Shown: piece by piece, positions 35,114 through 37,457 of the stretch
How positions within the stretch are numbered: the stretch's first letter is position 1
Layout: each line of letters opens with the position of its first letter
Assembly (NCBI GenBank): GCA_965208905.1
Contig: OZ242365.1
Coordinates: 640,001-704,000, forward strand
Origin: Nitrosopumilaceae archaeon
GTDB taxonomy: Archaea > Thermoproteota > Nitrososphaeria > Nitrososphaerales > Nitrosopumilaceae
Length of the DNA stretch: 64,000 nt
Direction: 5' to 3'
Notes under the pieces: generated by a model
What the model saw: only the letters and a program-made list of their open reading frames with translations
Told to the model about the DNA's origin: nothing
Databases searched by the model: none
Position numbers and translations under genes: made by a program

Positions 35114-35691
35114 CTCCTTTTTATTAAATAGAATCGCCCCACGTATGAGGGGGGCACTACTGATCTTGGTATCTGCGCATTAGTAGATAAGCCACTATTC
35201 CAGAAACAATTGCGCCCATGGCTATCATATCGTACATACATACAGTATGATGGCACCCATTAAAAATTATGGGAATTATAGTGATGGGTAGGATCATTTA
35301 ATAATCCCAAACGGTGTAGTATAGCAAATTCAGATCCAAGGAGGTGAACGGGTAAACAGGATGCAAAAAATGCGGTTTCATATGCAAGTGTGCGATTTAA
35401 TCATCAACCGAGGTGTCATGAATGTAAAAGGGAATGAAACCAATAGAATACACGATAGACACAGCCCGTGTATTTGAGGACATGCAGAATCAAACAGATG
35501 ACATCCACACAGCCCTACAAGTTTCATGACACCTCACCTTCCTTTATATTGTATATAGTGGTTTTGATCATTTAGATACCGTAGCATTATATGTCGCGTA
35601 TCGTATTGTACAATGCCATGCGGGTTTAGTAGAAACTTTCACTCGTAAATTCATTAACGATATCCGTATCATGGCCTCTGCGGGTATCATA

Positions 35692-35973
35692 TCATGTCTT
35701 ATAACGCATGTCCAAAACTCGCACTATACTATGTGTTATGTGCAGCATGGTTATCTTGCGTGGAGGCCGTGACTCAAATAAGGCCCTCTCAGACTCTAAA
35801 TCTTTGACTTTCTGCAACAATTCCTTCAAGTATGACATGGTTATATCGTCTGCCCGTAATTGATGTGTGTCTTTTGCCTTGTTGTATGTTGTCCCTCTGA
35901 ATGATGTTACTGTTTCTATGTTGTCCCTGGGATATTCTGGCAAATTCTCTAGTATGTCCCGTTCCAATGTCAT
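35692..35973 (-). CDS. Hypothetical 93-aa passenger protein within the IS1595 element
   Basis: ATG ORF with a TTTATA box about 25 bp upstream on the minus strand; no recognisable family. Confidence 0.45.
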   Translation of the reverse strand: MTLERDILENLPEYPRDNIETVTSFRGTTYNKAKDTHQLRADDITMSYLKELLQKVKDLESERALFESRPPRKITMLHITHSIVRVLDMRYKT

Positions 35974-36322
35974 AATGCGAGTTGTATGACAGTCTGTATA
36001 AACTCTATCAATGTTTATAATACAACCACAAGGGCAATGATATGTCGCACGGGTTCATTAATGCTCGTTAAATCGTTGCTGCCGTCCATATTGCGACCTC
36101 TGTGGACGGCAAAATCTAAGATATAGCATTACATTTTTGTGATAAAGTTGGTTTACTATGTATTAACTTTGTACAACTAAATGCAAGTAAACATAGAGTT
36201 ATAACCATAATCTAAGTATATACAAACAATGGTATAACAGTTCCATGTTACTGCTTCAGATACCATGAGCGGTAACTGTCGCTGCCCCTGTAGATTGTGA
36301 GCTAGGGGCAGCATCATCCTTT

Positions 36323-36405
36323 GTCGTGGTGGTCTAGTCTGGTAGGGCGGCGGTCTCAAAAATCGCTCATTCACAATGGCGCAGGTTCAAATCCTGTCCA
36401 CGGCG
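36323..36405 (+). tRNA. tRNA gene with CAA anticodon (Leu reading) on a Ser-type body
   Basis: Acceptor GTCGTGG/CCACGGC plus G73; D arm with GG; anticodon stem GCGGT/ATCGC with loop CTCAAAA; long variable arm CATT-CAC-AATG; T arm GCAGG-TTCAAAT-CCTGT; G15-C48 retained. Confidence 0.8.
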
Positions 36406-36415
36406 CACTAAACAT

Positions 36416-37366
36416 CTAACTTATCAGTTGCTCATATGTCAACCGCTTGCCAATCATGCCCCTTGCCAAACTTATCATCATGTCTTCAGTGTCTAGATTT
36501 CGTATGTTTAAACGGCCAGCAAACTCATTGACATACCTGTGCAGGTGCTTTGCCGACACATGATGGAATGTACCGTAATAGCCACGCTTTAACAAAGCCC
36601 AAAAGGATTCTATGCCGTTAGTGTGCGCCATGCCGTTGACATATTGACTTACCGAATGATTAACCACTTCGTGATTTGGTAAACTCTTGTATGCTCTATG
36701 CTCATCCGTATAATGGGTACTGCCCGACTTGACATTGTCTTTAATAAATTTGCCAAGTCGAGCAGATGTGGTCTCATTTACGGGTTCGGCTCTTATATCA
36801 CCTGTCTTTCTATCTTTGATACCTACAACTGCGGTTTTGTTTGCACCGCCTTGACTGTGGGGTTGTTTCTTTGTACTGTGTTTGTTCTTTTCCTTGCCAC
36901 CGATATAGGTCTCATCTATTTCGACTGGACCTTCCAGTTTGTCAATACCTGCCAATGTTTGCCATGATTCACGCAAACGCTGAACCATGAACCATGCTGA
37001 ACTTTGGGATATGCCTAAGTCTCTGTGTAGTTTCATTGATGATATACCCTTGACATTAGTCATAAACTGGTATGTTGCGATTGCCCAATGCTGGTATGAT
37101 ATTTTGGATTGTTGCATTACAGTGCCGACTTTGACTGAAAAATACGTTTTGCACTTACTACAATAGTATGGCATCTTTGGATGTTTACATTCTATGGTAT
37201 CATCATGTTTGCAGTTGGGACATTTACGGCCATCTCTCCATATGTGGCTTTCAAACCACTTCATGGATGTATGATTGTCTGGAAACATCTTTAGTAAATC
37301 TATTAGTGTGATTCCTTCCCTGTGTGATTTGCCTGGTGCTTGTTGCATGTAATACCTTAGATTCAT
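36416..37366 (-). CDS. IS1595-family transposase
   Basis: CPNC..YYCSKC zinc finger, GISSMKL HTH, VEIDETYIGG, YTDEHRAY, VNHS, HTNGIESFWALLKR, YVNEF..R.N.R. Confidence 0.95.
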   Translation of the reverse strand: MNLRYYMQQAPGKSHREGITLIDLLKMFPDNHTSMKWFESHIWRDGRKCPNCKHDDTIECKHPKMPYYCSKCKTYFSVKVGTVMQQSKISYQHWAIATYQFMTNVKGISSMKLHRDLGISQSSAWFMVQRLRESWQTLAGIDKLEGPVEIDETYIGGKEKNKHSTKKQPHSQGGANKTAVVGIKDRKTGDIRAEPVNETTSARLGKFIKDNVKSGSTHYTDEHRAYKSLPNHEVVNHSVSQYVNGMAHTNGIESFWALLKRGYYGTFHHVSAKHLHRYVNEFAGRLNIRNLDTEDMMISLARGMIGKRLTYEQLIS

Positions 37367-37457
37367 AGGGCATATAAATCCTATCCATCACTATAATTCC
37401 CAAAATTATCTATGTGTTGTATGCATGAAAAAAAGGTAGAACAGTGAGTTTGAGTAT

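Follow-up and report, generated by a model that had tools for sequence, protein, structure and literature searches.

Why would a transposon carry a transfer RNA (tRNA) gene whose body is of the serine type under an anticodon for leucine? The question is raised by a 64,000-nucleotide stretch of DNA, called here the window, which spans positions 640001-704000 of contig C1 in the archaeal genome G000, a Nitrosopumilaceae genome assembled as a single contig of 2.21 Mb with 45.6% G+C (positions given without a genome name are those of the window). An IS1595-family transposon of 2131 bp occupies positions 35271-37401, between a P-II gene and a small AsnC-type gene and near a TBP gene, and encloses a class II tRNA gene with the anticodon CAA, hereafter the insertion sequence (IS) tRNA. 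We describe below the recent movement of this element with its tRNA and the lineage of odd tRNAs to which the IS tRNA belongs, and we tentatively propose that it may act as a mobile missense tRNA.

The element, its recent movement and its tRNA

A first-pass annotation of this DNA had delimited the element by terminal inverted repeats (TIRs) matching at 23 of 24 positions and by a perfect 8-bp target site duplication (TSD), the usual TSD length in the IS1595 family. These boundaries hold, and both a second copy and a sister genome agree with them. Copy 2 lies at G000:1211856-1213986, is flanked by a separate 8-bp TSD, AAAAAAAT, and is identical to the window copy at 2130 of 2131 positions (99.953% over 2131 nt). 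The sole mismatch falls at element position 2114, within the right TIR, and the two TIRs of copy 2 match throughout. In G083, a sister genome of the same genus, both insertion sites are empty, the flanks being contiguous and 95-98% identical and each 8-bp target being present once. The presence of two near-identical copies, each with its own TSD, at two sites that are both empty in G083 indicates that the element and its tRNA moved recently: the element, tRNA included, has transposed at least two times since the split from G083. The two copies, the two separate duplications and the two empty sites also make the element more than a chance arrangement of repeats. Contigs assembled from four runs of one sample reproduce positions 35269-37256 with 0 differences, the depth of the element is about twice that of its flanks, and a loose contig end at 35262 leads into the flank of copy 2.

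The family assignment made at first pass is borne out by the transposase, the only long open reading frame (ORF) of the element, which matches DDE_Tnp_IS1595 of Pfam (PF12762) over profile positions 1-153 of 153 (2.2e-40, 138.6 bits). The Zn_ribbon_IS1595 profile (PF12760) reaches 20.1 bits, below its curated cut-off of 25.4 bits, and Cys-rich motifs are visible in the translation. By tblastn the transposase is 100% identical in the two copies. The element resembles other IS1595-family insertion sequences with passenger genes in its DDE_Tnp_IS1595 transposase, its TIRs, its 8-bp TSD and the presence of extra cargo; some subgroups of the family typically have passenger genes. It differs from them in that the cargo is a tRNA gene.

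ARAGORN (36323-36406, named Leu from the anticodon) and the Rfam tRNA model (RF00005; 36323-36405, 47.9 bits, E 2.9e-8, gathering score 29) both find a single tRNA within the window, on the plus strand. Together with the ORF coordinates they place it, as first reported, inside the transposon, with its last base 10 bp from the end of the convergent transposase ORF. The six class II tRNAs of the host that lack introns score 44.8-58.8 bits on the Rfam model, a range that includes the IS tRNA. The cloverleaf had been described as complete, and direct reading of the sequence agrees: 25 of 25 stem pairs form, and U8, A14, G18G19, U33, the TTCAAAT motif, G15/C48, G73, a long variable arm, 7/5 acceptor/T stems and a 7-nt anticodon loop are all present, giving the cloverleaf of a canonical elongator tRNA.

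The serine-type body reported at first pass is likewise supported. The D arm and the variable region match the host tRNA-Ser pattern, the latter (T, 4 bp, 3-nt loop, 4 bp, GC) being the same as in host tRNA-Ser(CGA). The anticodon arm, GGCGGCGGTCTCAAAAATCGC, differs from that of host tRNA-Ser(CGA), whose loop is CUCGAAA, at two positions, G35A and C40U, and the anticodon is thus CAA instead of a serine anticodon (NGA or GCU). That CAA might be an assembly error for CGA is contradicted by the contigs of the four runs, all of which keep CAA. To compare isotypes, we used a Ser model (R2) built from 12 family tRNA-Ser and a Leu model (R3) built from 15 genus tRNA-Leu. The IS tRNA scores 67.2 bits on the Ser model and 40.8 bits on the Leu model, close to two held-out true tRNA-Ser(CGA) genes (Ser 71.7 and 73.1, Leu 45.2 and 45.7 bits), while three true tRNA-Leu genes, which are close to the training set, reach 57.8-60.9 and 104.8-109.8 bits, respectively. 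Canonical tRNA-Leu of the genus have A73 in 15 of 15 cases, with a GGYCAAAGGCG-type D loop, and G73 is found in 14 of 14 aligned family tRNA-Ser. The IS tRNA is not of the leucine type, having G73, a serine-type D loop and two unpaired bases after the variable stem, compared with three in tRNA-Leu. Judged from its sequence, it is a serine-type body carrying a leucine anticodon.

A lineage of serine-type tRNAs with non-serine anticodons

When the IS tRNA was compared by BLAST with 201 genomes of the family, the best foreign matches were class II tRNAs with the anticodons CAA, UAA and UAU. A model of six such odd tRNA sequences (R1) places the odd tRNAs above the plateau of ordinary tRNA-Ser. 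A GTCTAG-type D-arm pattern gave 14 matches, spread over 9 of the 401 family genomes searched, and 0 with a reversed control; the anticodons were CAA (3), UAA (3), UAU (4), ACC (2) and GAU (2), and none was a serine anticodon. Three unpublished genomes (G077, G092, G093) enter only the denominators 151 and 401, and none of the odd tRNAs listed comes from them. A genus census was then made with R1 at E <= 1e-10 over 10 genomes, followed by ARAGORN on the fetched matches. Class II tRNAs with non-serine anticodons account for 26 of the 75 matches; a further 9, of 98-100 nt, are taken to be Ser(GGA) with an intron, like that of G000, and 8 have the length of class I tRNAs. The 26 are spread over seven genomes (2 each in G000, G018 and G043, 4 in G065, 1 in G113, 7 in G125 and 8 in G135), and at this threshold the census finds no odd tRNA in G083, G100 or G145. 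Their anticodons are those of Leu (CAA, UAA, GAG, AAG), Ile (UAU, GAU), Gly (ACC), Arg (CCU) and Pro (CGG), and the discriminator is G73 in 24 and A73 in 2. The two with A73 are L302 (G125:C1:1908149-1908233), with AAG, and L305 (G125:C1:1537145-1537231), with UAU; L302 may have changed over to leucine identity. Odd tRNAs with a different, second body type occur in G030 and G107 and have the anticodons GAU and GAA. Taken together, the anticodons of the lineage appear to be directed at Leu, Ile and Phe codons and rarely at those of Gly, Arg or Pro. By a hand tally over related copies, which is no statistical test, 34 of 38 odd tRNAs have A35 and 0 of 38 have a stop anticodon. This A35 bias and the absence of stop anticodons suggest that the anticodon is under selection.

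The structure is conserved across these copies. Over 18 distinct odd tRNAs, 95.8% of 450 stem cells pair, with 100% in the acceptor stem and 98.9% in the T stem, in an alignment fitted to a model, which favours structure; a MAFFT alignment of six gives 92.7%. Both sides have changed at 19 of 25 pairs, a number matched by 0 of 500 shuffles and approached by no slid register, and the 7/5 layout is found in 18 of 18. Two G065 paralogues illustrate such compensation, with C5-G68 in one and G5-C68 in the other. Between the G030 and G107 copies the tRNA is identical at 84 of 86 positions, compared with 230/311 and 236/302 (74-78%) in the flanks. The Ser model exceeds the Leu model in all 20 odd tRNAs tested, a set that excludes the 14 first found in the genus census, with margins of +4.7 to +29.7 bits. 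One relative, in G369, seems decayed: it has extra bases and a weak anticodon stem and scores 44.6 bits on the Ser model. The nearest relatives of the IS tRNA have the same body and lie at G135:C13:1714010 (UAA) and G113:C3:581796 (GAU), with homology that begins some 70 nt upstream and extends to the 3' end. Of the conservation that the first-pass annotation had looked for among relatives, the compensatory stem changes are therefore present and the CAA anticodon itself is not kept. We conclude from these comparisons that the odd serine-type tRNAs form a conserved lineage in this archaeal family, marked by G73 and by a D loop and variable-arm geometry of the serine kind, and that conservation at the family level shows selection on the RNA, its purpose being left unspecified.

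This lineage also shares an upstream feature. A GC-rich hairpin ends 10 nt 5' of the IS tRNA (fold -29.6 kcal/mol over 75 nt, z -3.7), and similar hairpins precede most members of the GTCTAG group, their stems varying by compensatory changes. Many copies have a TATA-like TTATAT in the interval that follows the hairpin and precedes the tRNA. For the IS tRNA and its two nearest relatives, this interval is just 10-18 nt long. The membership of the gene in a conserved, anticodon-switched lineage with a homologous upstream hairpin speaks against the earlier suggestion of a drifting, captured tRNA-Ser. We had also considered that the IS copy lost a promoter by deletion, and dropped this idea because the two nearest relatives share the hairpin-abutting layout; for the same reason, the missing proximal TATA is a trait of the subgroup and not a sign of decay. 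A position weight matrix (PWM) of host tRNA promoters, whose sites begin between -39 and -29 for 28 of the 43 genes, gives only weak sites in most relatives. Similar GC-rich hairpins are found elsewhere in G000, so the hairpin may be a generic element. Among these, hairpins of the form GCCGCCCC-loop-GGGGCGGC occur for example at 137708, 572186, 1376141, 1696712, 1780084 and 1907505 of the genome, some of them identical between sites, and are possibly a repeat or a terminator-like element.

A second association of an IS1595 element with an odd tRNA was found in another species. In G135, two IS1595 copies, both decayed, each contain a class II tRNA with G73 and the anticodon GAA, in the order end repeat (GGGAATTATATAC...), about 54 nt, tRNA(GAA) and transposase N-terminus, the tRNA having the same direction as the transposase. 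No switched tRNA was found at the other 16 IS1595 loci of the relatives and G000. The link between IS1595 and switched serine-type tRNAs has thus arisen at least twice, this layout being different from that of the window element.

Outside the family genomes, viral contigs gave 0 matches to an anticodon-specific pattern. Metagenome contigs gave 0 with the first pattern and 19 loci with a looser one, 17 of them intron-bearing class I tRNAs with A73 and two (L270, L275) class II tRNAs with G73 and GAU. A scan of genome contigs returned at least 120 loci, of which the 80 inspected were mostly ordinary Methanobacteriaceae tRNA-Ser, so that it says little on distribution.

Possible roles of the IS tRNA

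The reading that we tentatively prefer, at somewhat under an even chance, is that a mobile IS1595 element carries a tRNA of this lineage which would be charged with serine and read UUG, that is, a mobile missense tRNA. It draws on identity rules from the literature. Serine identity does not depend on the anticodon, bacterial-type and archaeal SerRS (seryl-tRNA synthetase) recognize G73 as a strong element, with G30-C40 next after it, and G73 of Haloferax volcanii tRNA-Ser is an antideterminant for LeuRS (leucyl-tRNA synthetase), according to the account in PMC9976931. By these rules of anticodon-independent serine identity and G73, SerRS would ignore the CAA anticodon and recognize the long variable arm and G73, while G73 would block the archaeal LeuRS. 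The IS tRNA would then be charged by the genome's single SerRS, a protein of 429 amino acids with an N-terminal arm domain encoded at G000:208945, and the seryl-tRNA would read UUG, placing serine where leucine is encoded. It would compete with the host's own tRNA-Leu(CAA), which has A73, G37, a leucine-type variable arm and an intron; the host also has a Leu(UAA)-type gene with A73 and introns. As UUG is common and a host-type promoter is missing at the usual distance, expression of the IS tRNA is expected to be weak or conditional, and not to cause constitutive mistranslation.

Several systems offer precedents. The bacterial allo-tRNAs (PMC5389517) are described as having serine identity elements with mostly non-serine, highly diverse anticodons, UAU (Ile) being prominent, and as lying near transposon-related and toxin-antitoxin genes. 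They have an 8/4 or 9/3 acceptor/T layout (12-bp branch), whereas the odd tRNAs are 7/5 and archaeal; moreover, unlike allo-tRNAs, the IS tRNA lies inside a transposon bounded by TIRs and a TSD, and many odd copies share an upstream hairpin. The nematode nev-tRNAs (Hamashima et al. 2012, PMC3333845; PMC4300185) are also of class II and have anticodons for amino acids other than leucine or serine (Gly CCC, Ile UAU), and their misacylation in vitro violates the genetic code; they differ in being eukaryotic and of leucine identity, with no transposon reported in the available portions of these papers. In CUG-Ser yeasts and Ascoidea, tRNA-Ser(CAG) is likewise a serine-type tRNA on a leucine codon that competes with a leucine tRNA (PMC6041473, in the part available). 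It is fixed in the chromosome, reads CUG and accompanies a lineage-wide code change, whereas the IS tRNA is mobile, accessory, directed at UUG and missing from the sister genome. By analogy, the IS tRNA can be regarded as a probable archaeal counterpart of the allo-tRNAs and nev-tRNAs, with a normal 7/5 cloverleaf and on a transposon. A literature search, in which the allo-tRNA supplements (possibly with archaeal cases) were not covered, gave no account of archaeal tRNAs of this kind, and none of an IS1595 element with a tRNA as its cargo.

A number of observations weigh against a missense role. The identity rules come from bacteria and from archaea of other lineages than the host's. The IS tRNA pairs G30 with U40 where host tRNA-Ser(CGA) has G30-C40, a weaker SerRS element, and G-U accounts for five of the 25 pairs. 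Of the Leu codons of G000, 20% are UUG (16 per 1000 codons), so that strong activity should be toxic; allo-tRNAs with leucine anticodons inserted serine at leucine codons, were toxic and arrested growth of E. coli (Mukai et al. 2017, PMC5389517, in the part available). Between -45 and -22 of the IS tRNA no site scores positive with the host promoter PWM, and the best upstream site is 271 nt off. On the same body, the IS tRNA and its two nearest relatives have three different anticodons. The element has no need of serine at UUG, since leucine aligns with four of the five TTG codons of its transposase gene in both paralogues and the fifth aligns with Leu in one and Met in the other, never with Ser; recoding of the element's own genes was rejected on these grounds. 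Finally, the element is dispensable, as the sister genome G083 lacks it. The G30-U40 pair, this dispensability and the labile anticodon weigh in particular against a simple beneficial role.

Two other explanations share part of this evidence. The tRNA-shaped RNAs may function outside decoding, either by acting as decoys or sensors for proteins that recognize particular anticodons, for example tRNA-cleaving nucleases of defence or toxin systems, or by regulating neighbouring genes, the convergent IS tRNA transcript running antisense into the 3' end of the transposase gene. We rate this as rather unlikely. The family-level conservation would fit selection for any RNA role; the conserved hairpin 10-35 nt upstream, which leaves no room for a promoter in the IS tRNA subgroup, hints at a longer or unusual transcript; several copies adjoin defence genes (a CBASS-type cyclase, a type II restriction enzyme, an N6 methylase); and mistranslation by all of the up to 8 above-threshold copies in G135, with mixed anticodons, would be hard to tolerate. 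The same possibility was weighed for the inactive allo-tRNA(UAU) by the authors of PMC5389517, in the part of it available. However, all features needed for translation are kept (7/5 stack, U33, purine 37, G18G19, T loop, G73), and no candidate partner protein is conserved beside the IS tRNA's subfamily. That the gene is instead a silent hitch-hiker, a tRNA of the lineage picked up by the transposon and carried neutrally, untranscribed or unprocessed, is in our view unlikely. It would agree with the lack of a host-type promoter at the usual distance, with the absence of the element from G083, with the apparent decay of the G369 relative and with the unrelated methylase-HNH cargo of sister IS1595 elements in G000; in addition, the insertions are so recent (one difference between copies) that intactness here is not evidence of selection. 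It accords less well with the intact 25 pairs and tertiary positions, with the two nearest relatives, which keep the body and the hairpin-abutting layout in other species, and with the second, independent IS1595-tRNA association in G135.

We consider it very improbable that the IS tRNA is a true leucine tRNA, charged by LeuRS and boosting UUG decoding for the element. The Leu label of ARAGORN comes from the anticodon, and a long variable arm is also found in tRNA-Leu, but the discriminator, the D loop, the unpaired bases after the variable stem and the Leu-model score all separate it from the tRNA-Leu of the genus, the G73 antideterminant is known for an archaeal LeuRS (PMC9976931, in the part available), and the host already has a tRNA-Leu(CAA). 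Returning to the missense reading, a broader form of it is conceivable, though doubtful: the lineage could be a mobile arsenal of expressed, serine-charged tRNAs for Leu, Ile and Phe codons, spread by transposons and kept in defence islands, through which regulated mistranslation of the proteome or of an invader, perhaps controlled by the hairpin, would serve as a weapon or stress switch, a natural code ambiguity in archaea.

A mismatch of tRNA body and anticodon is known in bacteria, nematodes and some yeasts, and it is now seen in archaea, in dozens of copies across one genus, with recent jumps of the window element that can be reconstructed base by base. If the missense reading is true, the odd tRNAs could insert serine where the code says leucine, isoleucine or phenylalanine. 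If they are charged and used, sense-codon ambiguity can be horizontally mobile, and the host would be a tractable test system, with one SerRS, one competing tRNA-Leu and two insertions missing from the sister genome; if translation makes no use of them, what remains is a conserved family of tRNA-shaped RNAs with another role. In either case annotation is affected, as anticodon-based callers name these tRNAs Leu, Ile or Phe.

Cargo, sister elements and neighbouring loci

Table 1. Features of the window element and of the decayed IS1595 copies in G135
Feature	Position	Strand	Basis or remark
TSD, left copy, AAAATTAT	35263-35270		single at the G083 empty site
Left TIR, GGGAATTATAGTGATGGGTAGGAT	35271-35294	+	23/24 against right TIR; 24/24 in copy 2
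Perfect 13-bp inverted repeat in cargo region, arms 35410-35422 and 35523-35535	35410-35535		inverted-repeat search
93-amino-acid cargo ORF	35692-35973	-	ORF list
GC-rich hairpin, GCTGCCCCT / AGGGGCAGC, 14-nt loop	36281-36312	+	fold; homologous to hairpins 5' of related odd tRNAs
Class II tRNA gene, 83 nt, serine-type body (by sequence), G73	36323-36405	+	ARAGORN, Rfam, Ser/Leu models
Anticodon CAA, loop CUCAAAA	36357-36359	+	ARAGORN; same in contigs of four runs
IS1595-family DDE transposase, 316 amino acids	36416-37366	-	Pfam; tblastn
Right TIR	37378-37401	-	inverted-repeat match to left TIR
TSD, right copy, AAAATTAT	37402-37409		match to left copy
tRNA(GAA) in decayed IS1595	2415-2504 of L005 (G135:C13:1521466-1525164)	-	
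tRNA(GAA) in decayed IS1595	1147-1236 of L019 (G135:C13:1618831-1622119)	+	

The cargo ORF of 93 amino acids has no match in Pfam or PADLOC and a weak one only to phrog_25288 (E 8e-4). A 66%-identical paralogue lies at G000:2111552-2111845, and the ORF was not found beside other odd tRNAs in the neighbourhoods checked. Two sister IS1595 elements of about 2.7-2.8 kb with protein cargo lie in G000, at 1043578 to about 1046415 (L288) and at about 1770000-1772700, their transposase genes being 75-79% identical to that of the window element. One of them carries an N6_N4 methylase-HNH fusion of 454 amino acids and has the 8-bp target AAAATTAT, the same as the window copy.

The other odd tRNAs have varied neighbours, among them DDE_Tnp_4, DDE_Tnp_1, IS240-type and IS66 transposases and, of the defence type, an Eco29kI-type (type II) restriction enzyme, an N6 methylase and a CBASS-type cyclase (4.6e-142). 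No protein partner is common to the subfamily of the IS tRNA, whose neighbours differ, and no unit bounded by inverted repeats was found around the odd tRNAs at four other loci. The second-body tRNAs lie in a cassette extending from about 1.9 kb upstream to 0.9 kb downstream at L089 in G107 (GAU) and at L082 (GAU) and L091 (GAA) in G030, which thus has two. In this conserved cassette an ORF of 255-259 amino acids lies upstream of the tRNA and a membrane-like ORF of 601-605 amino acids downstream; neither has a Pfam, PADLOC or PHROG match.

With respect to base composition, the genus is split between genomes of about 41-47% G+C (G000, G018, G083, G145) and of about 58-67% (G043, G065, G100, G113, G125, G135), and most odd tRNAs lie in the GC-rich ones. 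The idea that their anticodons are aimed at codons rare in GC-rich hosts (G125, G135 and G065, about 59-66% G+C) was tried and is not general, because AT-rich hosts hold UAU, UAA, GAU and CAA copies and ATA represents 61% of the Ile codons in G000.

Three minor loci complete the survey. Outside the window, G000:1664528-1664679 holds a tandem pair of weak tRNA-like sequences, the first of which is a 73-nt class I tRNA with ACU for ARAGORN and scores 38.7 bits in Rfam, where the second is unreported. At L295 (G135:C1:45206-45843), two G73 class II tRNAs with GAU lie in opposite orientation about 290 nt apart. Lastly, the UAA tRNA of L092 and L083 in G065 and of L081 in G135 belongs to a unit of about 341 nt, from -193 to +147, made of hairpin, tRNA and flanks; the unit occurs at two places in G065 with about 95% identity, no inverted ends were found on it, and it may move by itself.

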